Below the pieces are notes generated by a model, which saw only the letters and a list, made by a program, of their open reading frames with translations, was not told the DNA's origin and made no database searches. Source: Minisyncoccota bacterium (lineage in GTDB: Bacteria; Patescibacteriota; Minisyncoccia; Phycocordibacterales; CSBR16-193). From it: a DNA stretch of 64,000 nucleotides. The DNA lies in contig JBBDRA010000003.1 in assembly GCA_040905715.1 (NCBI GenBank), positions 199,075 through 263,074 of the forward strand, read 5' to 3'. The first letter of the stretch is position 1. The number at the start of each line of letters is the position of its first letter. Made by a program: the position numbers and the translations under genes. Of this stretch, positions 5,281 through 44,354 are shown in pieces.

Positions 5281-6948
5281 TTAGGGGCGTAGCTCACCTG
5301 GTAGAGCGTCGGTCTCCAAAACCGAAGGTAGCAGGTTCAAGTCCTGTCGCCCCTGCAATTTAGGATTTTTAGCGTAGATTTCACTCAAATCCCTTTTATC
5401 CTCGCCGTATTTAGGTGGTTCTAACCTATCGTGAATAGCGTCCACTGCTTTCTTCATTGATTTCATAGGAAATAGCAGATTATCCCAATCAATTCGCAGT
5501 ATTTTGTCTTTAAGGATTAGGTTCGAACCTAATGTAGCGAATATTTCTTTTTTCGTTTCCAAATTGTTACTTTCTCTAGCTTCGGCAAAGAGGGAAGACG
5601 CCTTTTCAGCAAAACTAAATCCACGTTCTGCTATCTCAAGCCAGTTATCTACACGCTTGTCTGTGCCCTTGAGAAGTTCTTGATATTTATCCTTCTCTTC
5701 AAGTAGTTTTTGTTTTCGCTCACGAAACTCTTCCTCACTAAGTTCATCATTGGCACGCATATCAATCAGGTTATCTAACCTGCGTACGCATGATTCATAT
5801 CCTCGCCTCTGTGAGCTGTAAATGAGTTCTCGGTCATCTACCTCCTTTGAGTTCATTTCCTTGAGCCGTGCCAGTGCCCAGTCTTTGAAATCAGTGGGTA
5901 TTTCTACAGATTCCAATTCTTTTGCTATTTGCTTTTCAAGCTCCTTTTCTTCAATCGGGGACTGACTGCAATTTGGGTCCTTTCGTTTCGTGCAGTGATA
6001 ATAGGTGTAATAGTGTGAGTTGCCATTCTTTTGGTGCTTCACTTTCTCCTCAGCTGTAATCATGGCTCCACACTCACCACATTTTAGAGGACCACGGTAG
6101 GCAATAGTATGTCGTTTTGGTCGTGTTGTATTTTCTCTGCCTAGCATTTGCTGTACTCGCTCATACTCTTCTCGAGTCACCAGAGGCTCATGTTTCCCCT
6201 TATAGGTATTACCGTCGTGCTCAATAACTCCCATATAGAAAGGATTAGTAAGTATCCTGTAGGCAGTACTTCTAGCGACTGGTTTGTTGCCACCTCGCTT
6301 TGTTTTACGAGTTCGCAGACCCCATTCATTATTTGCTATATCTAAAATCTGAGTCGGACGATAATTGCCTGTTAGCATTAAATCCCAAATCTTACGGATA
6401 AGGTTGAACCGCTCTGGGTCCTTGATGATGGTTTTTTCAGATTTGTCATTTAGGTAACCAATTGGCGGTAGGCTAGTAGCCCATCCTCTTTTTAGTCTAC
6501 CTAAGTTGCCTCGTTTTACATTTTTACTTAAATCAAGAACGAATTGGTTTGCTACTCCACTTTCCACATTAAATAGCAGTACATTATCTCCAGGGAGGTA
6601 TTCTCTGTCTACTGTTTGTATGCTCTGGAGTACGTTGCTTTGCAAGAGCCAGCTTAATCTACCACTGTCTACTGGATTGCGAGAGAGGCGGTTGATTTGC
6701 CAGCAAAGTATGCCGTCCGCTTCACCGTCCTCAACTCGTTGCAACATCTCCTCAAAAACAGGGCGATTGTTTGGAGTTTTTGCTGATTTCGATTCCGTAA
6801 GGTGTTCAATAATTTCAATGTTGAGATTATGAGCAAGTTCCGTGAGGCGGTTTGTTTGGTCCTCTATAGATTGTATCTGTCGGTCCTCACTCTCAGAGGA
6901 TTTCCGAGCATATAAAAAGTATCGTTTTTTGTTCGTATCTTTGCTCAT
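5281..6948 (-). CDS. large serine recombinase (resolvase N-terminal domain, recombinase domain, Zn-ribbon)
   Basis: N-terminal YFLYARKSSESEDRQ catalytic-serine motif; C-terminal CxxC..C zinc ribbon; coiled-coil; ATG at 6948 preferred (the listed 6984 start is TTG); the last 24 codons run antisense across tRNA-Trp. Confidence 0.9.
   Translation of the reverse strand: MSKDTNKKRYFLYARKSSESEDRQIQSIEDQTNRLTELAHNLNIEIIEHLTESKSAKTPNNRPVFEEMLQRVEDGEADGILCWQINRLSRNPVDSGRLSWLLQSNVLQSIQTVDREYLPGDNVLLFNVESGVANQFVLDLSKNVKRGNLGRLKRGWATSLPPIGYLNDKSEKTIIKDPERFNLIRKIWDLMLTGNYRPTQILDIANNEWGLRTRKTKRGGNKPVARSTAYRILTNPFYMGVIEHDGNTYKGKHEPLVTREEYERVQQMLGRENTTRPKRHTIAYRGPLKCGECGAMITAEEKVKHQKNGNSHYYTYYHCTKRKDPNCSQSPIEEKELEKQIAKELESVEIPTDFKDWALARLKEMNSKEVDDRELIYSSQRRGYESCVRRLDNLIDMRANDELSEEEFRERKQKLLEEKDKYQELLKGTDKRVDNWLEIAERGFSFAEKASSLFAEARESNNLETKKEIFATLGSNLILKDKILRIDWDNLLFPMKSMKKAVDAIHDRLEPPKYGEDKRDLSEIYAKNPKLQGRQDLNLLPSVLETDALPGELRP
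5283..5355 (+). tRNA. tRNA-Trp (anticodon CCA)
   Basis: AGGGGCG acceptor; anticodon loop CTCCAAA; T-arm GCAGG-TTCAAGT-CCTGT; close to the canonical bacterial tRNA-Trp. Confidence 0.9.
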
Positions 6949-6985
6949 ATAAAAACCCGAAAGGGACGGTCTGTGTTGAACCAAC

Positions 6986-7103: not shown

Positions 7104-8369
7104 TCATCTTTTCTCAAGTGAGGACCGAGTAATAAGCTCAAATCTATCAAGTGCTTCGTCCACAAAAGCAATGCCATTGGAGTAGGGTAAGTTCTTGGTT
7201 AGTTCTGATGCTTCACGTATCTTCTTTGTGAGACGTTCAGGATGACTTGGACTCCAGCAGCTGGCTACCAATTTACGGAGTTCTTTTACGCCACGGTCTT
7301 TAATAATACATGTCAGACCATAGGAAATAAAAGCCCGATTCATACTGTGCACCTCTCCTTTTTTTCTTGCTTCCTCAGCTATGTGAAGAAGCAGCTTAAA
7401 GTCGTCCGTGGGACCAATGAGTGCAAGTTGATTTTCTGGTCTTTGTACAAGTGTATGCCATGATTTAAGTAGTATTGTTTTGCTTAAGTTATCAGAAAAC
7501 AAATCCCTGAACGCCACATAGGTTTTTGGTTTTCTGTCCAAAACAGCGTTTATGTCTCGCTGAACCGCCTGCGTCTTTTTTATACGATATTCGAATCGAA
7601 ATACCTCTTGATTCTCGAGTCCGTACTTTTCAACGATACTTCTTTCACCCACAATTTTCCCTTTGTCTTTACGTTTCACTTTGGGTCGCATTGCGTCAGC
7701 TATTTTGTCGTAGAAAACACGTTCAACGGTTCCAGAATAGATATGAAGGACCTGCCCACCATTCTTGTTCTCTTTAGTGGTTATATCCACAGTTTTATTT
7801 ATATCTACTTGTTGTAACTCTGCGAGTATGTCTTGCAATCGTATATCTCGCGGAAGTATTACATTCTTACAGAAGTGGACACCTGACACACGAGCGTTCG
7901 CAATTACATTTGCTTCAACGATTATCCCAACACTTGAGAGTGATTTCTGAAGAACAGTAAGAGCTTCCCCTAGGTTCTTGTCAGACACTTCTTGCAAGCT
8001 GTTACCGTATAGGAGTTTGGGAAGTGAGAACTCTGCTATAAGTACATACAGAACCTCTTTGCGTTCTTTATCAAGCGTCTCCAGAACATCTACTTTTGGT
8101 AGATAGGTGTCTTGTGCTGGGGCTTTTAAAACGAAACGACGAAGGTAGTGTCGGTTTGATTGCTTTTCTGTGTCAGAAAGCTCGGTGTATTCTCTGCGAA
8201 CTATTTCTGGTAGAAACCGTTGTTTGTAACCAATTTTGAACTTGCCTGGTCCGTATATCTTTATGATGACAGTATCCATAGTATTTTTGTTGTTGGCGGT
8301 GTTTTTCAAGGAAACCTCTTTAATCAGGTAGATTCTCTGAGGTATGACAAACACTCTCTTTGGCTTCAT
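7104..8369 (-). CDS. hypothetical protein (island; possible replication/mobilisation function)
   Basis: long ORF with no recognisable motif; start uncertain (ATG at 8369 or 8279; the listed 8387 is TTG). Confidence 0.5.
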   Translation of the reverse strand: MKPKRVFVIPQRIYLIKEVSLKNTANNKNTMDTVIIKIYGPGKFKIGYKQRFLPEIVRREYTELSDTEKQSNRHYLRRFVLKAPAQDTYLPKVDVLETLDKERKEVLYVLIAEFSLPKLLYGNSLQEVSDKNLGEALTVLQKSLSSVGIIVEANVIANARVSGVHFCKNVILPRDIRLQDILAELQQVDINKTVDITTKENKNGGQVLHIYSGTVERVFYDKIADAMRPKVKRKDKGKIVGERSIVEKYGLENQEVFRFEYRIKKTQAVQRDINAVLDRKPKTYVAFRDLFSDNLSKTILLKSWHTLVQRPENQLALIGPTDDFKLLLHIAEEARKKGEVHSMNRAFISYGLTCIIKDRGVKELRKLVASCWSPSHPERLTKKIREASELTKNLPYSNGIAFVDEALDRFELITRSSLEKR

Positions 8370-8502
8370 GCTTAGAAGTAATCTCAATCAAACGGATGAG
8401 ACGTGAGCCTTTATCAAGAGCCTCGGCTTTGCTGATGTCTTTACCGAAATGTTTTCGATAGAGTGCCTGAAACTCGATTATGTGTTCATCCGTTAGTTGC
8501 AT
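8320..8502 (-). CDS. small hypothetical helical protein (possible regulator)
   Basis: 60-aa ORF with ATG start; overlaps the 5' end of the next ORF if that ORF starts at 8369. Confidence 0.35.
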   Translation of the reverse strand: MQLTDEHIIEFQALYRKHFGKDISKAEALDKGSRLIRLIEITSKHEAKESVCHTSENLPD

Positions 8503-8504
8503 GA

Positions 8505-8771
8505 CTAATCAGAGTAGAGCTTGTTTTTAAGAGCTTTCAGGTTGTCAAAGTACGACCGCGCCTTGACTTCTAATTGGTTAGAAAAATACTTATTGGCATG
8601 CTCCTCAATTTCTTTATCTCGTTTGAATACAAAAAGGACCTTACGAGAGTTTGTTTTCTCTAGTCCCTGAAGTTGGTAACCGCTAGACAGTAGTGCTGCC
8701 GAGGCTCCGAGGTCATACGTTGTGAAGACTGATGATGAGTCCTCGCGGAATGAGACTGCTTCTTGGTTCAT
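8505..8771 (-). CDS. small conserved hypothetical protein of the island
   Basis: 88-aa ORF with ATG start; resembles small proteins often linked to recombinases (DUF5659-like, low confidence). Confidence 0.45.
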   Translation of the reverse strand: MNQEAVSFREDSSSVFTTYDLGASAALLSSGYQLQGLEKTNSRKVLFVFKRDKEIEEHANKYFSNQLEVKARSYFDNLKALKNKLYSD

Positions 8772-8879: not shown

Positions 8880-10154
8880 TCAGGACCTCTTTTGTTTTCT
8901 ACGCCATTCTATTGCTAAACGCCTATTACGCTCCCTTTTACATTCGTCACTTTTACATATCTTTTGAGGTTTACCACCTCGTCTTAATGTTGGTGGGTAT
9001 TCATTGCCGCAAATCTCACATCTTGAGATTTCAAGAGGAACAGAGTGCATTGAAAGCATAGGGACTATCGCAGGTGAGGTGATTTTCTTTCCAGTAAGGC
9101 ATTCATAGTAAAAAGCTAAATATTGCACGAGTTCTAGATACCAGTTAGACAATCTGACCGCATTAGCGACTCCGTGTTTTACACCCAGCTTTTTCATTCG
9201 TACTGAATCTTTCTGAGAGATTTTTAAAATAGCGGGGGATTCGTGGGCTTTTATAAGAAGAGGATTCAAAAGGAAAGCCTGATGCAACAATGTTTCTATC
9301 CAATGAGGAATGTGCTCCTCTGTAACATTCGGGTTTTGCTTTTTAATCAAGTCAGCATAATGCTTACCTGTAATGGCTGAATAGTGACTCATAAAATCAT
9401 TCATGAGCTTGCTTCTTATTGGACCATTTCCACGACTTTTCCATATTGTTCTTGCTGCATCTTCAAAAAAACAATCCTGTAAATCTCTAATGTCGAGAAG
9501 TAGAGTTGCTACTTCATCCCAGTGTTTGCTCCCTTGCATTATCGTTTCCTTGTTAAGGTCGAGAAGCTCCTGCCAAGTTGTAAGTATTGCGTTAGAGTTT
9601 TGCTTAGGGTACTCAAGCGTCTTTTCCTTCCATCTTTCTATCTGGACGAGCGAATGTAACTGGTATGTAGCATAGTAGCTGTCACCTTTGTGCTTTGCGA
9701 GGGGCGTTATTAAGTTATTTTCTTCATACCAGCGTAAGTGTTTTTCGGGGATAATGAATCCCCTATGTCTATACAAGCCCCTAAGAGTATCCACGGTATG
9801 TAAGCGTTCAACGACTATTGTGGAGCTTCTGTGTTCGACTCTTTTTTTAAGAGATGTTGGGGTGTAAACAATTCTCTTCTGAATCTCCTTTGCCTCTTTC
9901 TCATTTTTTGTTGGTCTATAGGTTCGTATATTTTCACTAAGAATACCCCACATTTTTAGCCCCAGTTCCCTAGAAGTAGCAGCTTTAACCTCTTCTAGTC
10001 GTGCTGCATGTTCAAGTGATAACTTGTCCAACGTGTCTTTGTTTATAGTGAAATACGGACAATGCGTCTTTGACCTTTTGAAAGAGTTTTCTTGCTCTTT
10101 TACCCACTTATTATAAGAAGCGATAATCGCTCTTTTGGTTCTTTTTTCTGCCAT
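8880..10154 (-). CDS. hypothetical protein with C-terminal zinc ribbon
   Basis: 424 aa; C-terminal CEICGNEY...CKSDEC; basic termini. Confidence 0.6.
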   Translation of the reverse strand: MAEKRTKRAIIASYNKWVKEQENSFKRSKTHCPYFTINKDTLDKLSLEHAARLEEVKAATSRELGLKMWGILSENIRTYRPTKNEKEAKEIQKRIVYTPTSLKKRVEHRSSTIVVERLHTVDTLRGLYRHRGFIIPEKHLRWYEENNLITPLAKHKGDSYYATYQLHSLVQIERWKEKTLEYPKQNSNAILTTWQELLDLNKETIMQGSKHWDEVATLLLDIRDLQDCFFEDAARTIWKSRGNGPIRSKLMNDFMSHYSAITGKHYADLIKKQNPNVTEEHIPHWIETLLHQAFLLNPLLIKAHESPAILKISQKDSVRMKKLGVKHGVANAVRLSNWYLELVQYLAFYYECLTGKKITSPAIVPMLSMHSVPLEISRCEICGNEYPPTLRRGGKPQKICKSDECKRERNRRLAIEWRRKQKRS

Positions 10155-10292
10155 AGTAATTGTAATATGGTTCCCATACTAGCATCTTTATATACTTTCG
10201 AAATCTTGAAGTGTATGGTTTAATAAACCTACACAACTGAATATTGTTACGACCTAACCCTTAGGAATTGCTCTTGAGGCATGGTCCAAAAA

Positions 10293-10338
10293 CGCTACGA
10301 ACATAGAAAACCCGTCATCAGGGCGTTCGTAGCGTTGC
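10293..10338. promoter_or_regulatory. 12-bp inverted repeat in the divergent intergenic region of the island
   Basis: aacgctacgaac ...22 nt... gttcgtagcgtt. Confidence 0.35.
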
Positions 10339-10434
10339 CAGGGGAAACTCTGGTAGAGGTAACCGAAAGGTGCCTTCCTGGTGGCGGGCTTTGTGTATCT
10401 GCCGCCAGGCGTTACTAACTATTACTATTTTCGT

Positions 10435-11112
10435 ATGGAAGAACAAAATAAAAAATGGTATCAGAAGCCAGTTGGCATAATTGCTTTATTGGTCCTATTT
10501 TTTCCTGTAGGACTTTATTTAATGTGGAAGTACGCTGAGTGGGATAGGAATGTAAAGTGGGTTGTTACGGGGGGTGTTTTAGTGGTTATTATGATTGGTA
10601 CTGTCGCAGGTGAAGTAGACGAACAATCAACCTTGTCAGAGGGAGAAAACCAGGAAGAAAATAAATCGGTTGATGAATCTAACCTCACAACAGAAGAAAA
10701 AGTAACGCGGGCGGCTGAGGAAATCGTAGGTAATCACGACAGTGTCGAGGTAATGGTGTCTGAAGGAGATGCGTTTCTTATATTTGAGGAAGAAACTTTT
10801 TATACCATCGAATCGGCTGTTAGAGACACATATGAGTATTTTGTGAAATGGGGAGAGGAAGCACTTGCCTATGATGAAATCGGTTTTGTTTCTGTTGAGG
10901 CAAAAACGCAATTTACTGATGAAAAAGGTAGAACATCTATGGGCACAATTATTCGTGTCCAGATGAATGAAGAAAACTTTAATGAATTTGAGTGGAAGAA
11001 TCTTGATTTTAGACCTATTCACAATCAGATAGACGAGTACGGGACGTTGTTTGTCCATCCACAGGTCTGGAGAGAGGTAGACATGAACGAAGATGCATAC
11101 CTATCTTTGTAA
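10435..11112 (+). CDS. membrane-anchored hypothetical protein
   Basis: ATG at 10435 (the listed 10381 start is GTG); one N-terminal TM segment, acidic linker. Confidence 0.55.
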   Translation: MEEQNKKWYQKPVGIIALLVLFFPVGLYLMWKYAEWDRNVKWVVTGGVLVVIMIGTVAGEVDEQSTLSEGENQEENKSVDESNLTTEEKVTRAAEEIVGNHDSVEVMVSEGDAFLIFEEETFYTIESAVRDTYEYFVKWGEEALAYDEIGFVSVEAKTQFTDEKGRTSMGTIIRVQMNEENFNEFEWKNLDFRPIHNQIDEYGTLFVHPQVWREVDMNEDAYLSL

Positions 11113-11142
11113 AAAAGCAAATAGCTCTAGATATAGCTAGTT

Positions 11143-12324
11143 ATGAAAAATCTACTTAAAAAATATTGGGCACTGCCAAAGATATATCAATTTTGTATCG
11201 CTGCCGTGGTATTCGTGTGCCTTTTCTTGGTTTTACCCAATGTTATTGCGTATATTTTTGCCGCTGCCGTTTCTTACGATTTGATTGATAAGAAGGTTTG
11301 GAAATATAGTGCAGTATCATTTCTTGCAGTTGTTGCTTTTTCTTCGGGCGTTCTGTGGATTGACGGGAAAACAGATTCACAACCAGTTGAAAGTAGTAGT
11401 GTTACTCAATCTGTAGACAGTGCAGAGCATAGCGAATCTAACCAAAAAGCAAAAACTACAAACGAAAGTGCTACTACAAGCCAAAATAATGTAGCGGAAG
11501 TAGAAGCGAGCCAAGGAGAAAGTAGTCAGCAGGATAATGGAGATGAAGCAGAAACTGATATTACGGGTCAAGAAGAAAATAATGAACAGGATGACAAAGA
11601 CGAGGACTCACAAATTGAAACTGAATCCAATCAAGTTAATGAAGGAAATGACGAAATCAGTCAAGATTCTCTAGCTGAAAATGATAGTGTCGATGAACCA
11701 TACGAAGTTGTCGATGTCGTTGATGGGGACACGGTAAAGCTGAGTATTGATGATGAAGTGGAAACTATTCGTCTGATTGGTATCGATACACCCGAGACTG
11801 TGCATCCGTCTGAGCCAGTTGAGTGTTTTGGGAAGGAAGCGTCAAACAAGGCAAAGGAGCTGCTTTCTGGGAAAACAGTTGTGCTAGAGGCGGATGAGTC
11901 ACAAGGGACAAGAGACGCTTACGGTAGATTGCTTGGGTACGTTATTCTGCCTGGCGGCAGGAACTTCAACAAACTGATGATTGAACAAGGGTATGCGTAC
12001 GAATATACGTACTCTACACCGTATAAGTATCAGGACGCATTCAAGACGGCGGAACAAAATGCTCGAACAAGTGAAGTTGGTTTATGGGCTGATGGGGCGT
12101 GTGATGATTGGGAAGAGAAATCCGAACAAGAGGACCAAACGAGCGATAGTACAACGTCAGAAGGTAACTGGTATGTGAGCTCACATCATTCATCGAAGTA
12201 CTACTACTGCGAAGAGAGTGACGGCTGGAAGTCCCTTTCAGAAAGCTACTTAAAGGTCTATGAAAGCGAATCGGCACTGCTTGCTGACTTCCCAAACCAT
12301 ACCTTGCACGAGAGTTGTGAGTAA
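11143..12324 (+). CDS. membrane-anchored thermonuclease (staphylococcal nuclease homolog)
   Basis: motifs DGDTVKL, IRLIGIDTPE, DAYGRLLGYV, EQGYAYEY, GLWA align with S. aureus nuclease A; N-terminal TM; long acidic low-complexity linker. Confidence 0.85.
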   Translation: MKNLLKKYWALPKIYQFCIAAVVFVCLFLVLPNVIAYIFAAAVSYDLIDKKVWKYSAVSFLAVVAFSSGVLWIDGKTDSQPVESSSVTQSVDSAEHSESNQKAKTTNESATTSQNNVAEVEASQGESSQQDNGDEAETDITGQEENNEQDDKDEDSQIETESNQVNEGNDEISQDSLAENDSVDEPYEVVDVVDGDTVKLSIDDEVETIRLIGIDTPETVHPSEPVECFGKEASNKAKELLSGKTVVLEADESQGTRDAYGRLLGYVILPGGRNFNKLMIEQGYAYEYTYSTPYKYQDAFKTAEQNARTSEVGLWADGACDDWEEKSEQEDQTSDSTTSEGNWYVSSHHSSKYYYCEESDGWKSLSESYLKVYESESALLADFPNHTLHESCE

Positions 12325-12367
12325 CATTACCTATTGACAACATCTCACATTGTATTATTTTATCACT

Positions 12368-13060
12368 ATGAAAAGATTTTTAATTCTTACATCTCTCTGC
12401 GTAGCTTTCGTGTTCTCGGCGGTAGTACCTAACGTCGTTTCAGCAGATGTGTGGGTAGATGGGTACTATCGGAGTAACGGCACCTATGTTAATGGACATT
12501 ACCGAAGTAGCCCAGACGGTAACCCTTACAACAACTGGAGTTATCCTGGTAACACCAACCCATATACAGGAGAAACTGCTGACGGAAACGCGAATACTTA
12601 TTTAGATAACTACTACGACAATAGTAGTGGTTATGATAGTTACAACTGGAGTTACGATTCGTATGACTATGATTATGATAGTTATGACTCATATGATTAT
12701 GACTACGACAGCTATGACTCGTATGATTACAGTGATTCTTCGTATGACACTTACGACTACAGTTCTACCTACGACTCAACACCTAACTGCCCAATAAACT
12801 CCTATTACAGCAGTATTGATGATGCGTGCACGTGCTATTCTGGTTACGCTGCGCAAAATGGTTCTTGCGTGAGAGCAAGTTCAATTTGCAAAGACGAGTA
12901 TGGTTATAACGCTCGATACAACTCTTTAAGTAACTCGTGTGAATGTAGATATGGTTATATTTTCAGTGGGGGTGAGTGTGTAAGTAAAGACCAAGCCTGT
13001 GAGGACCAATTTGGATACGGGTATGACTATAATTCACTTAGCGGATATTGCGAGAAATAG
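12368..13060 (+). CDS. secreted protein with D/S/Y tandem repeats and a Cys-rich C-terminal region
   Basis: signal peptide MKRFLILTSLCVAFVFSAVVPNVVSA; (DSYDSYDYDY)n; C-terminal repeated C.C..GY...C modules. Confidence 0.6.
   Translation: MKRFLILTSLCVAFVFSAVVPNVVSADVWVDGYYRSNGTYVNGHYRSSPDGNPYNNWSYPGNTNPYTGETADGNANTYLDNYYDNSSGYDSYNWSYDSYDYDYDSYDSYDYDYDSYDSYDYSDSSYDTYDYSSTYDSTPNCPINSYYSSIDDACTCYSGYAAQNGSCVRASSICKDEYGYNARYNSLSNSCECRYGYIFSGGECVSKDQACEDQFGYGYDYNSLSGYCEK
12650..12780 (+). repeat. ~30-nt coding tandem repeat (about 4 copies)
   Basis: gactc(a/g)tatgattatgactacgacagctat units. Confidence 0.6.
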
Positions 13061-13069
13061 CAATTTACT

Positions 13070-13261
13070 ATGCCTAAAACCAACACTTCTACTGACTGTA
13101 AGTATTGTGGGGCTGAAAATAGCTCAATAAACTCTTTCTGTATTAAATGCGGTAGGAAAATTGAAACAGAAGAACTGACAAAATCTTCAGTTACTGGATG
13201 GTCTCTGGGCATCCTTTTGGGTGGAGTGTTTATAGCGTTATCTATAATACTTTATGGCTAA
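13070..13261 (+). CDS. zinc-ribbon membrane protein (paralog 1)
   Basis: N-terminal CKYCG...CIKCG; C-terminal TM helix. Confidence 0.55.
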   Translation: MPKTNTSTDCKYCGAENSSINSFCIKCGRKIETEELTKSSVTGWSLGILLGGVFIALSIILYG

Positions 13262-13263
13262 AT

Positions 13264-13698
13264 ATGAAAATACTTAAGATTATTACAATTATTGCAAATG
13301 TTCTCGCTCTCTTTGTTTTGTTAGTCTTATTAGACGGTGGAGATTTGAGTGGCGGTGGCTTCCTTTTCTTTCTGATTATTTTTGTACTTAACACTATATT
13401 TGTTATTCGCTTTCGAAAAATGAATACGAATAAAGGATGGATTGGTTTATTTTTGGAGCGGAAAGCGATGGAGGAAAAACGAAAAATAAGAGATTTAGAG
13501 GGAGGGTCCGAAAAGCAGGATGATACAGTTAAAGAAAAGCGGGAAGACGAGAAAAGGGAACAAGATTCTGAGCAGGTAGAGCAAGTAGACAGTTCACAGA
13601 GTACTGCGGGCGATGTAAAGTACTGTGGTCAATGTGGGGCTAAATCGGATATTGATGATATGTACTGTGAGCAGTGCGGAACTAAACACGAGATATAA
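13264..13698 (+). CDS. membrane protein with C-terminal zinc ribbon (paralog 2)
   Basis: ATG at 13264; 2 TM segments; CGQCG...CEQCG at the C-terminus. Confidence 0.55.
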   Translation: MKILKIITIIANVLALFVLLVLLDGGDLSGGGFLFFLIIFVLNTIFVIRFRKMNTNKGWIGLFLERKAMEEKRKIRDLEGGSEKQDDTVKEKREDEKREQDSEQVEQVDSSQSTAGDVKYCGQCGAKSDIDDMYCEQCGTKHEI

Positions 13699-13706
13699 AC
13701 ATTACT

Positions 13707-14402
13707 ATGAAATGCAGAGAGTGCGAAAAAGAGGTAAAAGATAGTGCAGTTTTTTGCTCTGATTGCGGATGCAAATTAAGTGGTCCTAAAGAATATAATT
13801 CTCCAGTAAATATCAATTACTATGCAAGTGACTGGAGGCAAACGAATACGTTATCAGTAGCTACTTTGGCTTATGTCGACCTTCTAGTGAAAGAAGATGG
13901 GTTATACATCATACAACTTCCTCGTTATCGTAGCGGTGTAATACTTGCATCCTTAGTCGGTTTATTAATCGCTAATTTTTTTGGTTTTTTGATTGGTTCG
14001 ACAATAGCTCACTCAGTGAATAAAGGTAAGCGTAGAGAGTTAAGGAAGAAATGGTTAAATAAAAATAATCAATTGGCTACCGATAGTTTTAAGGAGTACG
14101 TACTTTTACATATTCCACAATCAAACCTTGATGCTTCTCTTAAACTCAGGAGACGCAAGGTGGTCATTGAGTACGGTGGAAATAAGGTAGTTGCAAAGAA
14201 AAACAAAAAAGAAGTCAACAACTTACAGCGTGCTATAAATGGAGAAAAAGTTCCAATGCCGATTAGAGATGAGCAGCAGGCACAGGAAATACAAGAAGAT
14301 GAAGCAACGAAGAAAAAACAAGCAATTATTGTTTTATCAATTGTTGTAGGATTGTTTGCTTTTTTGTTGGGAGGTATCTTATTAGTAACTCTACTTATTT
14401 AA
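13707..14402 (+). CDS. zinc-ribbon membrane protein (paralog 3)
   Basis: N-terminal CRECEK...CSDCG; TM segments. Confidence 0.6.
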   Translation: MKCRECEKEVKDSAVFCSDCGCKLSGPKEYNSPVNINYYASDWRQTNTLSVATLAYVDLLVKEDGLYIIQLPRYRSGVILASLVGLLIANFFGFLIGSTIAHSVNKGKRRELRKKWLNKNNQLATDSFKEYVLLHIPQSNLDASLKLRRRKVVIEYGGNKVVAKKNKKEVNNLQRAINGEKVPMPIRDEQQAQEIQEDEATKKKQAIIVLSIVVGLFAFLLGGILLVTLLI

Positions 14403-14409
14403 CTAATAT

Positions 14410-15117
14410 ATGAATTGTTCGAACTGTAACAAGGAAATAAAAGAGGGTGCTAACTTCTGCTCTGCTTGTGGTACCGAGGCGGTTAATAATCCTGGTGGTG
14501 CAGTGAAAGTGCTAGGAGAAACAGATGAAAGGTCTCAGCTTGAAAGAAGTAAATATAATAAAGCTCGACTGCTTTGGATTCTTGTTCCGATTGCCTCTAT
14601 GTTCGTCTTAGCTATTCTTTGGGGTATTGTCTCATTTCTTGAGGAGGTTGCTCCGTCTTTAAGAGTTCTAGTGGAATTATTTAATGTTTTTGTTCCAATC
14701 TTTTTTGCTCTTGCTCTGATATTTATTCCAATTGGAATTGTAGTGGCTATTAGAATCACGAACAAAATAAAGAGATTGGGTGTTGAATATGACTCACGCT
14801 CTGGTAAAGGCGATGCGTCTATTGTTCCTGATGAAGTTAAGAAAGGTCTAAACTGGGGTCCAGGACTTGGTATTATATGGGGAGCTTACTTCAACATATG
14901 GAGCTCTCTTCTTGTGCTTATTCCATTAGTTAATCTAATCTGGTTTATCGTTGCTTTGGTTGAAGGAAACGAATGGATGTGGAGGAATAATAAATGGGTT
15001 TCCGTAGAGGAGTTTCAGGATTCACGTAGAAGATGGAATATAGCTGGTGCTACAGTACTGATAATCTCTCTTTCTCCATATCTGCTAGTCATACTGATAG
15101 CCTTAGCATCTGCTTAA
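14410..15117 (+). CDS. zinc-ribbon multi-pass membrane protein (paralog 4)
   Basis: N-terminal CSNCNK...CSACG; at least 5 TM segments. Confidence 0.6.
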   Translation: MNCSNCNKEIKEGANFCSACGTEAVNNPGGAVKVLGETDERSQLERSKYNKARLLWILVPIASMFVLAILWGIVSFLEEVAPSLRVLVELFNVFVPIFFALALIFIPIGIVVAIRITNKIKRLGVEYDSRSGKGDASIVPDEVKKGLNWGPGLGIIWGAYFNIWSSLLVLIPLVNLIWFIVALVEGNEWMWRNNKWVSVEEFQDSRRRWNIAGATVLIISLSPYLLVILIALASA

Positions 15118-15128
15118 TACGTTACCCT

Positions 15129-15296
15129 ATGAAACAGCACACAAAGTATTTTTTATTGTCTGGAACACTGGTCTTTATAGTTATCCAAGCAATAGGTAAC
15201 TATTCAACCTATAGTTTTTTATTGGCAGGTCTATGGCTTGGCTTTTGGGTTGGTGTTGATGTGAAAAATAGATACGAGAACTTCTTAAGTGAGTAA
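15129..15296 (+). CDS. small membrane protein
   Basis: 55-aa hydrophobic ORF starting ATG 15129. Confidence 0.4.
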   Translation: MKQHTKYFLLSGTLVFIVIQAIGNYSTYSFLLAGLWLGFWVGVDVKNRYENFLSE

Positions 15297-15313
15297 TAAA
15301 ATAACTTTTTTAT

Positions 15314-15493
15314 ATGCTAAATGGTTGGGCGATAATAATTGCAGTTGTTGCGGGTTTGTTTGCAGGAGCGATTACTAATGCCTTGCTTCAATTCATATTT
15401 GATTCTAACGAGGATTACTCTGGTAGTGCTTTTTTAGTAGGATGGCTTGTTTTGATGTCGATACTCTTTTTTTGGCGTATTATGTTTCACTAA
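15314..15493 (+). CDS. small membrane protein
   Basis: 59-aa hydrophobic ORF not in the track. Confidence 0.35.
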   Translation: MLNGWAIIIAVVAGLFAGAITNALLQFIFDSNEDYSGSAFLVGWLVLMSILFFWRIMFH

Positions 15494-15612: not shown

Positions 15613-16578
15613 ATGACGGAAAAGAATAGCATAACTAAAAGACAGCACTACGTCCCTCAGTTTTACCTGAAGAGGTTTGTAAACCCTGATGGTAAGCTAA
15701 ACATTCTTGATTGTGAAAGACGTAAAGTCGTTGCTTCAAGAGCACCCAGAAGTGTCTGTAAAGAGGATTACTTCTATGCTCTTAATGGTGAATTGGATGA
15801 AGTCAGCCAGTCTTTGGAGGAAGGGCTTCAGAAGATAGAAACTGATATTGCGAATGGTTATGACGATGTAGCAAAAAGGGTCTCTGATTTCAAAGAGATA
15901 ACGCACGATGATAAAATGCTCGTCGCGACTTTTATGTCCTTGCAGTACTTACGTGGACTTTATATGAGAAAGCAAACGAAAAGAATGGACGAGGACTTTA
16001 TCAAGAAAATCACTAGGCTACGGTATGGCTCTGGCAATATACATACATCGCTTGATAGGCTTGAAAATGAAACTGGAGAAAAACTATCAGAGAAAGAAAG
16101 GGAAGAGTTAATCGAGTTCGCTAAAAGCGGTGATTATAGAGTTGAAACAAATAACGCGTCCCACTTGCAGCTATTATCTCAGATTGAGGGTTTCAGAAAT
16201 CTGTTTTACGGGAAAAGATGGACTGTTTATGTTTCAAAATCCAGTAAGAAGTTCGTTACGTCTGATAATCCTGTGGCTGAAATGTTTCCAGAATGGACCG
16301 GTAGGTTTTTCTACGGACCATCTTTTTTTCAAAGAACTCACTATTTTGCAATGACTCCAGACATACTAATTGTTGCAGGTGATGTTTTGCGTGGTGAGAA
16401 AAGAGTAAAACGAAAAACACTTTTTGATAGCAGGGAGGGAAACGCTAAAATCCTCACGCTGAACTTCACTGTCTCTAGACACGCCATTGCTTATGCGTAT
16501 GCTAACGATAAGACCTTATTACAGGATATCGTGGACGGTGTTAATCTGTACGATAGGCAGCAAAGTAAAAAAGCATAA
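15613..16578 (+). CDS. DUF4238-family protein (candidate anti-phage defense protein)
   Basis: N-terminal HYVPQFYLKRF motif characteristic of DUF4238; 321 aa. Confidence 0.7.
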   Translation: MTEKNSITKRQHYVPQFYLKRFVNPDGKLNILDCERRKVVASRAPRSVCKEDYFYALNGELDEVSQSLEEGLQKIETDIANGYDDVAKRVSDFKEITHDDKMLVATFMSLQYLRGLYMRKQTKRMDEDFIKKITRLRYGSGNIHTSLDRLENETGEKLSEKEREELIEFAKSGDYRVETNNASHLQLLSQIEGFRNLFYGKRWTVYVSKSSKKFVTSDNPVAEMFPEWTGRFFYGPSFFQRTHYFAMTPDILIVAGDVLRGEKRVKRKTLFDSREGNAKILTLNFTVSRHAIAYAYANDKTLLQDIVDGVNLYDRQQSKKA

Positions 16579-16581
16579 AAT

Positions 16582-17079
16582 ATGTCACCAATAGTTCAAA
16601 TTGAGATTACTGCATCTGCTGTAGCTTGGTATGCAGCAATAGTCGCAACTCTGGTAGGAATTGCTCAGATTGTGGCTGTATGGAGGGACAGAAAGCATGT
16701 CAAAATAAAAATAGAGAAAGGAATAAGGATTATGGGTCCCGATGGTCCTGGTCCGTATGAAGAGAATACAGACTACGTTGCTATTCGTATTATTAATGCA
16801 GGGCGTAGAGAAGTTAGCATTCTCACCGCAGGTGCTAGTTTGTTAAAAGGGGGACAGCTTATCCCTACCGATATACTGAAGGCGGGAACGGTAACTCTAG
16901 GTGAAGGAAAACGATACGATGCTTTTGTAAAACAAGAGCAGTTAGATTTTTCTCAAATTGCTTATTTTTACGTAACAGATGCCACGGATTCAACTTATAA
17001 GAAACCAATCGCGAATCCCTTTAGACGTTTATATTGGTTTGTTAGAAGAAATGTTCAGATTTTTACAGGTTGTTTGTAG
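16582..17079 (+). CDS. small membrane-anchored protein, translationally coupled to the DUF4238 gene
   Basis: start 4 nt after the upstream stop; N-terminal TM (AWYAAIVATLVGIAQIVAVW). Confidence 0.55.
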   Translation: MSPIVQIEITASAVAWYAAIVATLVGIAQIVAVWRDRKHVKIKIEKGIRIMGPDGPGPYEENTDYVAIRIINAGRREVSILTAGASLLKGGQLIPTDILKAGTVTLGEGKRYDAFVKQEQLDFSQIAYFYVTDATDSTYKKPIANPFRRLYWFVRRNVQIFTGCL

Positions 17080-17186
17080 AAAAACTCACTCTCTCCTTCA
17101 AGCAAACAGGTTCTAACGTCGTCCATAAGTCCCTGCATCGTGAAATTAAAACCCCGACGAGGGGTTTTAATTTTGCGAAATTCAGA

Positions 17187-17205
17187 GGCGGCGACAGGAC
17201 TTGAA
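17187..17205 (-). repeat. inverted partial copy of the tRNA-Trp T-arm/acceptor region
   Basis: reverse complement ttcaagtcctgtcgccgcc matches the tRNA-Trp 3' region over 16 nt; lies 112 nt left of the right-hand 22-bp direct repeat. Confidence 0.5.
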
Positions 17206-17316: not shown

Positions 17317-17338
17317 CAAGTCCTGTCGCCCCTGCAAT
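17317..17338 (+). repeat. right-hand copy of the 22-bp direct repeat (attR-like)
   Basis: identical to 5338-5359. Confidence 0.7.
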
Positions 17339-40649: not shown

Positions 40650-41201
40650 ATGAAGATGTGGAATCGAACCACGATGGAATGGCGTTGTGATTTGGCATAT
40701 GCCGGCCTCGAGATAAATATCCCGGTTGATGATATGCCCGGCCGGGATGATCTTGTGCACTCGATCAGCGCCTGCAAAGCGGTATCACAGCCCGACCAAT
40801 GCGGCCGTCTAGAGCTTCAGATCAAGCGCTGTGTGATAACCCCGACCACCAAACACGAAGATATCATCGAGCGCCTGAAGGAGATATGCCAGGCAGTTCG
40901 TGAAAATGAGCACGGTTTCAATGGTGTCGGGCTTCGCGAGAAGGGTATTGAGAAAGGGAAGTACCCGATCTGGTTCACGATGAGCCGCGACCTTTCGTTC
41001 TGCGACGCGGCGATAAAACTGGTCCGCGGCATCTTTGATGGCCTCGGAGTAGAAGACAAACACCGTATGCGCCTGTCCAGCTTCAGGATCACTCAGGAGA
41101 CACTTGTTCCGGTCGATGAGGGTTGGATAACGTATGCACGTTGGCTTCGTATGTACCACCGCCTCAATGCGTTTTCATTGGATGAAGTGTGCGGAGCATA
41201 A
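40650..41201 (+). CDS. hypothetical protein
   Basis: SD gaggag before ATG 40650. Confidence 0.5.
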   Translation: MKMWNRTTMEWRCDLAYAGLEINIPVDDMPGRDDLVHSISACKAVSQPDQCGRLELQIKRCVITPTTKHEDIIERLKEICQAVRENEHGFNGVGLREKGIEKGKYPIWFTMSRDLSFCDAAIKLVRGIFDGLGVEDKHRMRLSSFRITQETLVPVDEGWITYARWLRMYHRLNAFSLDEVCGA

Positions 41202-41226
41202 CAGCACATTTCGCTCGCTACAAACA

Positions 41227-41259
41227 ACGCCAGGCAATAAACTTGCCTGGCGTTTATTT
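41227..41259 (+). terminator. hairpin terminator (weak U-tract)
   Basis: acgccaggcaa taaac ttgcctggcgt. Confidence 0.5.
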
Positions 41260-41394
41260 ATGTCCTGTGGGTATAGAGACCTCTCAGTACTTCTTTTTTC
41301 TCAGTTTCTATAGTATCGTACGGCGTGGAATACTCTCGTCGAGTACCTATTTGTTCTTCGACACTCTTTCAGTTTCTTGAAAGGAATATGTGCC

Positions 41395-42786
41395 ATGAGC
41401 CAGAACACACTGTTCGACAAGATTTGGAGCGCTCACAGCGTTCGGGTTTTGCCCACTGGGCAGACCCAGCTTTTCATCGGGCTGCATCTCATTCATGAGG
41501 TGACCAGCCCGCAGGCATTCGACATGTTGCGCAAGCGGGAGCTCACGGTTCGCTTTCCGAAGCGAACCTTTGCCACCGTGGATCACATCGTGCCGACCAC
41601 CGAGGAGGGTCGCGAGCGTCCGTTCCTGGACGTCATCGCCGATGATATGCTCACGCATATCGAGCAAAACTGCCGAGAATTTGACATTACTTTCTTCGGC
41701 CTCGGCCACGAGGGGCAAGGCATTGTCCATGTCATTGGCCCGGAGTTGGGACTGACCCAGCCCGGCTTGACCATTGCCTGCGGCGATAGCCATACCTCGA
41801 CGCACGGCGCCTTTGGTGCCATCGCGTTCGGTATCGGCACTACGCAGGTGTTCAACGTCCTGGCAACGCAGTGCCTTTTGCTCAAGAAGCCGAAGGTTCG
41901 GCAGATCAAGGTTAACGGCGAGCTGCCTCCCGGCGTGTTCGCCAAGGACATTATCCTGGCGATCATCGGGAAGCTCGGCGTGAAGGGCGGCATCGGCTAT
42001 GCCTACGAATACACCGGCTCGGCGGTTGATGGGCTGGACATGGAAGGTCGTATGACCATCTGCAATATGTCCATCGAGGGCGGTGCCACCTGCGGGTACA
42101 TCAACCCCGATCAGACGACCGTTGAGTACCTCAAGGGTCGTGCCTTTGTGCCGAAGGGCGCACGGTTCGACCAGGCCGCGAAGCAGTGGCTTGAGCTCAG
42201 CTCGGGGTCTGACGCTGTCTATGACGACGTTGTGGAGATCGACGGCAACTCGCTCTCACCGATGACCACGTGGGGTATCACCCCCGGCCAGGTCGTCGGT
42301 ATGGACGATCCGATTCCGAACGATGCCGACCCTGAGGCTCTTTCTTTCATGGGTCTCACGGTCGGCCAGAGGATCATCGGTACCAAGATCGATGTTGCCT
42401 TCATTGGCTCGTGCACCAACGGTCGCATCAGCGACCTGCGGGAAGCGGCTCGCGCCATCACTGAGCATGGTCTCACGGTGGCCTCGCATGTTACCGCCCT
42501 GGTTGTTCCCGGCTCAGAGTCGGTGCGCAAGCAGGCGGAGACAGAAGGGCTTCATGAGATCTTTCGGAACGCCGGCTTTGAATGGCGTGAAGCCGGGTGC
42601 TCGATGTGCCTGGCTATGAACCCTGACAAGCTCGAAGGGTCGCAGCGTTGTGCCGCTTCGTCAAACCGCAACTTCAAGGGCCGGCAGGGCAGTCCGACCG
42701 GACGCACCCACCTGATGTCGCCGGCGTCTGTTGTTGCCTCGGCTGCGGCCGGGGAGATCGCCTCTCTCCAGCAGCTTGTAGCCTGA
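41395..42786 (+). CDS. leuC: 3-isopropylmalate dehydratase large subunit (aconitase family)
   Basis: full-length LeuC similarity, GDSHT motif; SD aaagga; markedly GC-rich relative to its surroundings. Confidence 0.9.
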
Positions 42787-42822
42787 ATTCCCCGAAACGT
42801 TCAGATAAAAAGGAACAAAGCT

Positions 42823-43431
42823 ATGACTTCACCGGCAGATATGGCAATTACACGGATCGGGGGGAGGGCATTTCACCTTGCCGGCGCTGACGTTGACACC
42901 GACCGGATCATTCCGGCTCGGTACCTCAGGTGCGTGACCTTCGATGGCCTCGAACAGCACGTGTTCGAAGACGACCGAGCGCAGCTGAACGGACAGCATC
43001 CCTTCGATCTTTCTGAGAACATCGGCCGCAGTGTCCTCATCGTGGATGCCAATTTCGGCTGCGGCTCAAGCCGTGAGCACGCCGTCGCCGCGATCCAGCG
43101 GTGGGGTATCAAGGTTATCATCGGCCAGTCGTTCGCCGAGATCTTCCGGGGGAACGCGACGGCCAACGGTTTGGTCTGTGTCGATGTTTCTGAGCAAGAT
43201 CACGCTCGCATTCTACACGAGCTCGGCAAAAAGGATTCTGGGGTTATCATCTACCTCGACACTTTGAGGGCAGAGTTGAAGAGGTCTGCAGAATCGATGG
43301 CGATCACTATGCCTTTCGCCGATCGCGACATGCTCGTGGGCGGCACCTACGACACGACCGCAACCCTGCTCCAGGCCGGCGACCAGATCGAGGAGACCGC
43401 ATCGCGTCTTCCGTACATGGTGACTGATTAG
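42823..43431 (+). CDS. leuD: 3-isopropylmalate dehydratase small subunit
   Basis: LeuD swivel-domain motifs (GCGSSREHA, RIIPARYL). Confidence 0.9.
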   Translation: MTSPADMAITRIGGRAFHLAGADVDTDRIIPARYLRCVTFDGLEQHVFEDDRAQLNGQHPFDLSENIGRSVLIVDANFGCGSSREHAVAAIQRWGIKVIIGQSFAEIFRGNATANGLVCVDVSEQDHARILHELGKKDSGVIIYLDTLRAELKRSAESMAITMPFADRDMLVGGTYDTTATLLQAGDQIEETASRLPYMVTD

Positions 43432-43465
43432 TCTCCGTGAAGAAACTGAAAGAATCTAAACCACA

Positions 43466-43501
43466 GACCCGCTGTCCGTTACGGACACGCGGGTCTTTTT
43501 T
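43466..43501 (+). terminator. rho-independent terminator
   Basis: agacccgctgtccgt...acggacacgcgggtct plus T6. Confidence 0.7.
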
Positions 43502-43510
43502 ATCAGTGCC

Positions 43511-43542
43511 GGCGGCGCCTTGGTTCCGGCGCATGGTTGTTT
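43511..43542 (+). repeat. 32-bp perfect direct repeat, copy 1 (copy 2 at 44455-44486)
   Basis: ggcggcgccttggttccggcgcatggttgttt is identical at both positions. Confidence 0.8.
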
Positions 43543-43667
43543 TTCAAGAACATGTGCTCAGTCAAATGCTCCAGGTTGTGTTATTCCTCCTAATCTTCAA
43601 TGATCCGTTTTTGTATATGAAAACCCCCTCTCTTGAGAGAGGGGGAAGGGGTTCGGTGCGTGGAGCC

Positions 43668-44354
43668 TCAGTGTGCCAGCAGGTCGATCACGTCGTGTAT
43701 TCGGGGCAGGAATGGCGAAGAGCGCAGGAGCTTTGCCACTGCAACCGCTCCGTGGCCATAGGGTGCGCCGCCATTGATCTTGCATGAGTACTCAAGTGGC
43801 ACGCCGGAAACCTCGACTGTTATCATGTGCCAAGCATGCCAGTCCAGATTCTCTTCAGGGACGCCAAGCGCAAGCTGCTCACCCCGGTCTCTGATAGAAC
43901 GGGTGTTCTCGTTTGGAATGTTCAGGATCTCCTGAATTTTCCACAGTGTACCCGGCACACTTGTCTTGGTGCTTTGGTGACTCTCGGTGACCCATGCTTC
44001 CCAATTAAAGAACTGGGGTTCTAAGTAATCACGAAGCTGTACAAGCTGATTCAGCAGGTAGATAACCGGAAAAGCCAGGTTCGGCGCTCTCACGACCGGT
44101 ATTCTTTTGGCCGCGTTGAACAGTGGCTGTTCGTGAAGTCCTGTCGAGGCCATGATGAACGGGGCGCCTTGATCGCAGCAGAGCGCCAGAGCGTCATCCA
44201 GCTGTCTGCCTGAACCAGTATGGATACATACGGCATCATCCATTGGTCTTGGTTGCTTCGGGTCGTACTGCGACACCGAGACGTTATGTTCTTCGCATGC
44301 CGCAATGATGGCGCTGGCAAGCTTCCCGCACCCAACTATGAGAATGTGCATTTG
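43668..44354 (-). CDS. divergent dihydrodipicolinate reductase (DapB)-family protein
   Basis: N-terminal Rossmann region ILIVGCGKLA; C-terminal motifs TESHQSTKTSVPGTL (compare E.HH.K.DAPSGTA) and GAVAVAKLL; flanked by the 32-bp direct repeats. Confidence 0.65.
   Translation of the reverse strand, partial: QMHILIVGCGKLASAIIAACEEHNVSVSQYDPKQPRPMDDAVCIHTGSGRQLDDALALCCDQGAPFIMASTGLHEQPLFNAAKRIPVVRAPNLAFPVIYLLNQLVQLRDYLEPQFFNWEAWVTESHQSTKTSVPGTLWKIQEILNIPNENTRSIRDRGEQLALGVPEENLDWHAWHMITVEVSGVPLEYSCKINGGAPYGHGAVAVAKLLRSSPFLPRIHDVIDLLAH

Follow-up and report, generated by a model that had tools for sequence, protein, structure and literature searches.

The subject of this analysis is a tandem pair of genes at the far end of a mobile island in a bacterium of the candidate phyla radiation (CPR). 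The window, as the whole stretch of DNA is called here, comprises 64,000 nucleotides (nt) of contig JBBDRA010000003.1 (positions 199,075 to 263,074, forward strand) and belongs to a metagenome-assembled genome (MAG) of Candidatus Paceibacterota (phylum Minisyncoccota). Within it, an island of ~12 kb is set apart by its low GC content (0.37-0.42 inside versus 0.44-0.53 in the flanking 5 kb on each side), by a 22-nt direct repeat, CAAGTCCTGTCGCCCCTGCAAT, whose two copies are 100% identical, and by a gene for a large serine recombinase (Table 1). An earlier interpretation made from the letters alone (the sequence-only reading) had placed the pair at the distal end of a recombinase-bearing island, and these features bear it out. 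The first gene encodes a DUF4238 protein of 321 amino acids (aa), the second a 165-aa protein with a predicted membrane helix at its N-terminus, both exactly where the same interpretation had placed them; it had taken the two as a coupled pair and a candidate anti-phage or abortive-infection module. The evidence collected here points elsewhere: they are probably two portable defence-type genes that share insertion niches and came to lie stacked at the cargo end of a serine-recombinase island in this CPR bacterium.

The DUF4238 protein starts MTEKNSITKRQHYVPQFYLKRF and matches the Pfam family PF14022 from end to end (residues 10-300 against positions 1-280 of the 281 in the profile; 124.6 bits, with a cutoff of 27; E=6.6e-36), which confirms an assignment that had been made from the motif HYVPQFYLKRF. 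This motif occupies residues 12-22 and is invariant, at H12, Q16, Y18, L19 and F22, in an alignment of 11 sequences drawn from the window clade, the P2-type proteins, the type embedded in restriction-modification (R-M) operons and the type of locus L184 (see below). The other positions invariant across the alignment are E69, E76, W203, F214, T216-S217-D218-N219-P220 and N284, of which F214 and TSDNP belong to a second motif, FVTSDNP, at residues 214-220. Because the window protein keeps every one of these family-wide residues, it looks like an intact, if distant, member of the family. The AlphaFold model is compact and soluble (predicted local distance difference test score, pLDDT, 89.3; predicted template modelling score, pTM, 0.85), and neither a signal peptide nor a membrane segment was found in the protein. 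Searches for a solved structural relative of the model (best Foldseek E=0.67) and a profile search of the sequences in the Protein Data Bank (PDB) gave no match, and the sole viral structural match is an uncharacterized protein of Stenotrophomonas phage Smp131. The polar invariants H12, Q16, E69, E76, TSDNP 216-220 and N284 would fit an enzymatic active site.

DUF4238 is, as the sequence-only reading had stated, a published single-gene anti-phage system: when one DUF4238 gene of the P2 hotspot was cloned on its own, it gave strong resistance to T7 (Rousset et al. 2022, PMC9122126). A literature search found no mechanistic work on the family after that study. The P2-like phage pro483 has a lone DUF4238 gene, flanked by the genes for the replication nickase and the portal protein; its product shares 23.4% identity with the window protein across 92% of the length.

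In order to place the window gene among its relatives, ~130 DUF4238 loci were gathered. The relatives with 60-65% identity (L003, L120, L122 and L124-126) occupy two kinds of surroundings. Three lie in islands: L003 is a sister island with a DUF4238 protein 65% identical to that of the window and a recombinase 43% identical to the window recombinase; in L120, a serine-recombinase island, the DUF4238 gene overlaps a SIR2_2 gene by 4 nt; and in L122 it sits at the far end of an island with a serine recombinase and a Toprim-AAA_25 primase. In L124-126, by comparison, DUF4238 (63% identity) is found within an operon of HsdR and methylase/specificity genes. A more distant relative, L210, shows the order HsdM-DUF4238-HsdS with overlapping codons, and AbiEii and DUF5677 genes nearby. 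Tight neighbours in further loci include a GmrSD_N gene and an HEPN-like gene, the latter a weak match (21.3 bits, just under the Pfam cutoff of 22). Overall, the mobile-plus-defence context of the window's DUF4238 clade is well supported, much as the sequence-only reading had expected from the island setting, and the distribution of its members shows that the clade moves between serine-recombinase islands and the interiors of R-M operons.

The L120 island, which is located in a Gammaproteobacteria MAG, carries an additional feature: an S-adenosylmethionine (SAM) riboswitch (RF00162, 69.3 bits) at 7186-7296 (+), 76 nt upstream of a same-strand string that encodes proteins of 79 aa and 91 aa, DUF4238 and SIR2_2. 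If the riboswitch controls this string, a drop in SAM, such as a phage SAM hydrolase might cause, could turn a defence operon on, a speculative scenario.

A large serine recombinase is found within 6 kb of DUF4238 in 10 loci, and directly adjacent to it in L015 and L125, which brings up the alternative that DUF4238 is a recombination directionality factor, or some other accessory, of the recombinase. The directionality factors that serve serine integrases vary widely and are not easily recognized. However, many DUF4238 genes have no serine recombinase nearby: they occur in P2-like phages (which use a tyrosine integrase), in R-M operons, or next to tyrosine integrases or a Mu-type transposase, and the position of DUF4238 relative to the recombinase varies from locus to locus. 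An accessory role in recombination was discarded as very improbable.

The second gene of the pair starts 3 nt after the TAA stop codon (16576-16578) of the DUF4238 gene. The N-terminal membrane helix that had been predicted for its product is supported by a hydrophobic stretch, ASAVAWYAAIVATLVGIAQIVAVW, which is followed by RDRKH, and by the AlphaFold model (pLDDT 71.7), in which a helix at residues 11-37 precedes a beta-sandwich at 40-142 and a C-terminal helix. The window protein has no match in Pfam, PADLOC, PHROGs or NCBIfam. The PDB matches of the model are confined to generic immunoglobulin (Ig)-like and ApaG-like folds with a template modelling (TM) score of ~0.35, and they were rejected as a clue to function since they reflect a generic sandwich.

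A word-indexed search returned two distant homologues, with DUF4238 absent from the upstream gene fragments of both loci, and would have left the 165-aa protein an orphan. That impression was overturned when 1.84 billion cluster representatives were searched exhaustively with a profile: 983 family members were found at E<=1e-3, 44 of them at E<=1e-30, and most are 140-175 aa long. What the family conserves is the N-terminal membrane helix (SASxVAWYAAIVAT, then RDR), followed by the motifs NxGRRPVTI, ELxEGK and DATGRxY; the C-terminal helix is often basic-aromatic. The distribution of charges suggests, by the positive-inside rule, that the sandwich domain faces the cytoplasm. Forty-four members gave no consistent match in PADLOC v2.0.0 or Pfam; the family is unnamed and absent from Pfam, PADLOC v2 and NCBIfam, and the arrangement of DUF4238 followed by a 165-aa gene is likewise uncatalogued in the catalogues searched. 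When sequence collections were scanned with a 9-sequence alignment of the family, no relatives were found in viral contigs or plasmids.

The neighbourhoods of the 165-aa family were surveyed in 80 metagenome loci and the two first matches, which together contain 66 non-redundant family genes. The recurrent order is HsdM (N6_Mtase and HsdM_N), 165-aa gene, HsdS (Methylase_S), usually with overlapping start and stop codons; HsdS follows directly in 10 of the 66 loci, and HsdM precedes the gene in several. R-M components are present in 17 of the 66 loci (12 of the 39 that reach at least 4 kb), nine loci of the family contain HsdR and therefore represent complete Type I systems, and in L180, L203 and L205 (2 non-redundant loci) the gene is inserted between the Type III genes Mod and Res. 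Further tight neighbours encode a KAP NTPase, an SNF2 helicase with DUF5677, NOV_C, AAA_13, REase_MTES_1575 and an RNase HII-like protein. Judged by its embedding in R-M operons, the family appears to be strongly defence-associated.

The two families meet in the same places. The slot between hsdM and hsdS is used by both of them (by DUF4238 in L210), and the serine recombinase found in the 165-aa locus L204 shares 63% identity with the one in the DUF4238-SIR2 island L005/L120.

The co-occurrence of the two families as a pair is rare. Neither tblastn nor a family hidden Markov model (HMM) detected a homologue of the 165-aa protein in the collected DUF4238 loci, and the family was found near DUF4238 in none of the 87 that were usable, that is, full-length, non-redundant at 90% identity and with at least 600 nt of downstream sequence. 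The closest DUF4238 homologues are followed by unrelated genes, such as a 238-aa gene in L003, or by none, and across the loci the genes tightly 3′ of DUF4238 are mutually unrelated. The spacing within the pair carries little weight either: the sequence-only reading correctly recognized an open reading frame (ORF) tightly downstream, but a gap of 3 nt does not stand out in an island where same-strand genes are typically 7-30 nt apart. Taken together, the comparison of loci does not support the idea of a conserved two-gene module. The proposed coupling of the downstream gene to DUF4238 does not hold up in this comparison, while the expected mobile and defence surroundings of DUF4238 do. Since the 165-aa gene is absent from the 87 non-redundant relatives, the window DUF4238 is probably autonomous.

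The favoured reading can be put in the following terms. The island is an integrative element of 12 kb with a large serine recombinase, inserted in tRNA-Trp, and its DUF4238 would be a stand-alone protein of phage or foreign-DNA defence. The 165-aa protein would be an accessory with R-M complexes as its usual partners, rather than a dedicated partner of DUF4238. Both families would be portable and would insert into the same two places, namely between hsdM and hsdS and at the cargo ends of serine-recombinase islands. The two genes are probably co-transcribed in this island, and a functional coupling between them may exist but would be optional.

Several observations weigh against this reading, and the first group of them concerns the independence of the two genes. 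In L184, an element with a D5-type primase, a DUF4238 gene (Pfam 96.5 bits) overlaps a gene of the 165-aa family by 32 nt. The two 165-aa copies are 31% identical, and between the two DUF4238 proteins only a local alignment (27% over 96 residues) was obtained. L184 is the only such pair among the 43 non-redundant 165-aa loci with enough upstream sequence, a result that rests on a DUF4238 HMM built from 241 sequences; a narrower first HMM, which scored 33 bits on L184, gave the same outcome. The recurrence hints at a real functional coupling rather than mere stacking; as a single case, it is suggestive, not decisive. Conservation of the pairing within the L184 clade was considered and rejected, as the DUF4238 gene of P0274, with 68% identity, has no partner. 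In addition, the gene that follows DUF4238 in L011 is homologous to the gene that follows a 165-aa member in L146 (E=1.8e-24). The homology of these two downstream genes suggests a third, uncharacterized family whose members occur as partners of DUF4238 and of the 165-aa family alike. The two proteins have ~245-266 aa and share 27% identity over 230 aa; in L174, a DUF5677 protein takes the same position.

It is from these observations that a two-gene system draws its appeal. In such a system DUF4238 would sense infection and the 165-aa protein would be the membrane effector, for instance a membrane-disrupting abortive-infection protein caged by its partner in the way that HsdMS cages RonA; elsewhere, R-M complexes would host this effector instead. 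The pair recurs in the same order, with a 3-nt gap in the window and a 32-nt overlap in L184, in unrelated elements and with highly diverged proteins. Elsewhere, DUF4238 overlaps interchangeable genes of effector type (SIR2 and, as a weak match, the HEPN-like gene), and the 165-aa gene overlaps the codons of hsdM and hsdS as if for stoichiometric production. The Ronin system provides a precedent for a small membrane-helix effector tied to hsdM/hsdS (bioRxiv 10.1101/2023.04.06.535777). Set against this are the counts (none of 87 non-redundant DUF4238 loci and 1 of 43 usable 165-aa loci), the absence of the partner from the closest relative of each DUF4238 copy (65% and 68% identity), and the validated DUF4238, which acts as a single gene. 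Moreover, short gaps are normal in this compact genome, and the soluble domain, a generic Ig-like sandwich, bears no signature of a pore-forming protein or an enzyme. A dedicated two-gene system is unlikely on balance.

The embedding of the 165-aa family in R-M operons and the recurrence in L184 keep a weaker version of the coupling idea alive. The family could be a widespread class of membrane-anchored accessories or effectors that serve Type I and Type III R-M systems, DUF4238, KAP NTPase and SNF2 helicase alike, with DUF4238 as sensor and the 165-aa protein as output. Its members might then be partner-caged abortive-infection effectors or, alternatively, membrane tethers at the site of phage DNA entry. 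Such a class is a tentative suggestion, and we consider it unlikely to be correct in this form.

The second group of adverse observations concerns the defence function itself. Experimental anti-phage evidence is confined to the E. coli P2-type protein, with which the window clade shares only 23% identity. The defence-specific PADLOC model for DUF4238, PDLC03000 (DUF4238-Pers), matches the window protein significantly and over almost its whole length, but weakly, at just 34.2 bits (E=4.6e-9; residues 6-292, profile positions 2-283 of 309). The remaining island cargo consists of membrane and secreted proteins rather than classical defence genes, and PADLOC recognizes none of it except for a generic SNase domain. 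The term 'anti-phage' is an extrapolation here because CPR phage biology is poorly known.

Alternatively, then, the pair might have nothing to do with defence and be ordinary cargo for the cell surface or the episymbiotic lifestyle of CPR bacteria, in which case the neighbourhoods of the relatives would reflect a general clustering of mobile genes. The nearby cargo, mainly membrane or secreted proteins with a membrane-anchored SNase nuclease among them, would suit such a role, as would the lack of any other defence system in the island by PADLOC and a DUF4238 fold with no solved relative. Yet embedding in R-M operons with overlapping codons is specific, and it recurs in both families; anti-T7 activity has been demonstrated experimentally within the DUF4238 family; and the DUF4238 protein itself, compact and soluble in its model, has no signal peptide or membrane segment. 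A role outside defence is quite unlikely, and stacking of two portable defence-type genes is still the preferred interpretation.

The anatomy of the island is summarized in Table 1. An alignment of its two ends, the left and right attachment (att) sites, attL and attR, confines the identity to the 22-nt core. No capsid, portal or terminase genes were found in the island (ORF list, Pfam, PHROGs), and because these are missing its gene content marks the element as an integrative island rather than a prophage.

Table 1. Features of the island and its borders, in window coordinates.
Feature	Position	Strand	Evidence
Large serine recombinase (integrase)	5281-6984	-	Pfam Resolvase, Recombinase, Zn_ribbon_recom; phrog_95 integrase E=2.4e-69
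tRNA-Trp (CCA), integration target of the island	5283-5356	+	ARAGORN; Rfam tRNA 67.2 bits
attL, left copy of the 22-nt repeat CAAGTCCTGTCGCCCCTGCAAT, 3′ end of tRNA-Trp	5338-5359		Repeat search, alignment
427-aa backbone protein	7104-8387	-	ORF; 50% identical to L003 island gene
60-aa backbone protein	8320-8502	-	ORF; 42% identical to L003 island gene
DUF5659 backbone protein	8505-8771	-	E=4.4e-11
424-aa backbone protein	8880-10154	-	ORF
LOOT RNA (RF03000), head of the plus-strand cargo string	10251-10376	+	Rfam 75.6 bits (gathering score 46.4)
Other cargo, membrane or secreted proteins	10381-15493	+	ORFs
Membrane-anchored SNase nuclease	11143-12324	+	SNase E=1.1e-27
Zinc-ribbon membrane proteins	13198-15117	+	Zn_Ribbon_1
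DUF4238 protein, 321 aa, candidate stand-alone anti-phage protein	15613-16578	+	Pfam PF14022
165-aa protein (predicted N-terminal membrane helix, Ig-like beta-sandwich, basic C-terminal helix)	16582-17079	+	ORF, AlphaFold
18-bp hairpin with A-/T-tract flanks, candidate terminator	17138-17178	+	RNA fold -25.1 kcal/mol, z=-6.5; inverted repeat
Inverted copy of the att core GGCGACAGGACTTG	17190-17203		14 nt, 100% complementary; 113 nt inside attR
attR, right-hand repeat copy (22 nt), at the island's right end	17317-17338		Repeat search, alignment

The recombinase ORF crosses attL and runs into tRNA-Trp in antisense orientation, such that the 18 codons at its end, past the att core, consist of host sequence. 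When the island ends are joined, a recombinase of 553 aa with another C-terminal tail is predicted, compared with 567 aa in the integrated form. Among the minus-strand backbone genes that follow, those for the 427-aa and 424-aa proteins have no match in Pfam, NCBIfam or PADLOC. The 427-aa protein is a candidate for a replication or mobilization function of this island family because of its conservation in the sister island L003.

The plus-strand cargo is headed by a LOOT RNA, a feature that is also present in L003 (4592-4713 (+), 90.8 bits) and L122 (5208-5328 (+), 86.3 bits). In these three related islands the RNA has the same place, with the minus-strand backbone on one side and the first cargo gene of the plus strand on the other, and heads a same-strand string that contains DUF4238; DUF4238 is the last gene of this string in L122 and is followed by at least one more same-strand gene in the window and in L003. 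No LOOT RNA was found in the 17 other DUF4238 or 165-aa-family loci that were scanned. The RNA may act as a leader for the cargo module or regulate it.

Between the LOOT RNA and the pair lie the secreted nuclease and the membrane proteins that the sequence-only reading had noticed, the nuclease being the membrane-anchored SNase protein. The latter matches the PADLOC model C3a212 (SNc+LTD; E=7.8e-49) with the nuclease domain alone, which probably reflects the generic domain rather than a defence system. Beyond the pair, a strong hairpin 59 nt after the stop codon of the 165-aa gene and 139 nt before attR is the probable terminator that closes the cargo string; a simple terminator scan made no call at this hairpin. 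Elsewhere in the window, positions 41000-44000 reach a GC content of 0.55-0.60, compared with ~0.47 in the remainder, and contain ORFs of 469, 202 and 249 aa; no rRNA or other Rfam family was detected in that segment.

Any natural partner or regulator of DUF4238 is a lead, given that the family is validated in defence, and the locus extends it to CPR bacteria, in which phage defence is little studied. The 165-aa family deserves attention in its own right. It has been proposed that 'guilt-by-embedding' in R-M operons nominates new defence genes (Payne et al. 2024 preprint), and the family is embedded in this manner in R-M operons of Type I (at least 10 independent ones) and Type III (2 non-redundant ones); being large and uncatalogued as well, it is a concrete new defence-associated candidate. 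If DUF4238 were indeed the sensor and the 165-aa protein the output, the pair would offer the first mechanistic handle on DUF4238; if the 165-aa gene only stacks beside defence genes, the arrangement would be a case of ordinary defence-island clustering.

Among known systems, the closest counterpart of the first gene is Rst_DUF4238 (Rousset et al. 2022), which belongs to the same Pfam family over its full length, has the same invariant residues and likewise forms part of the variable cargo of a mobile element. The two proteins are only ~23% identical, however, and Rst_DUF4238 is a single gene in a P2-like prophage hotspot, whereas the window DUF4238 lies outside the variable P2-type hotspot (the slot between replication gene and portal gene, as in pro483), in a CPR serine-recombinase island at tRNA-Trp and with a tightly spaced second gene.

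For the 165-aa family, the system that comes to mind is Ronin, in which the 61-aa, single-helix protein RonA is a cell-death effector kept inactive by HsdMS (Silas et al. 2023, bioRxiv 10.1101/2023.04.06.535777). The likeness is one of architecture, a small one-helix membrane protein tightly tied to hsdM and hsdS, and by analogy Ronin may offer a caged-effector model for the mechanism of the family. RonA has no folded domain, in contrast with the conserved beta-sandwich of the ~140-175-aa family members; Ronin is devoid of hsdR, which accompanies the 165-aa family in 9 loci; and, unlike in Ronin, no R-M gene adjoins the 165-aa gene in the window.

R-M slots such as those taken by DUF4238 (L210, L124-126) and by the 165-aa family (at least 10 non-redundant loci) are also the location of PrrC, TgvAB and the candidates of Payne and co-workers. 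The 165-aa family matches no PADLOC v2.0.0 model, and its lack of an enzymatic domain sets it apart from PrrC and TgvAB. PrrC consists of an ABC ATPase plus an anticodon nuclease. TgvAB, which is found in Vibrio, is GmrSD-like and embedded in a Type I R-M operon (PMC11411939).

Finally, the island as a whole resembles other tRNA-targeting islands with large serine recombinases in the domain set of its recombinase, in a repeat that regenerates the 3′ end of the tRNA, in its low GC content and in its variable cargo. It differs from them in an identity of 22 nt that is long for the crossover site of a serine recombinase, in a recombinase ORF that extends across attL, and in the LOOT RNA that heads its cargo.

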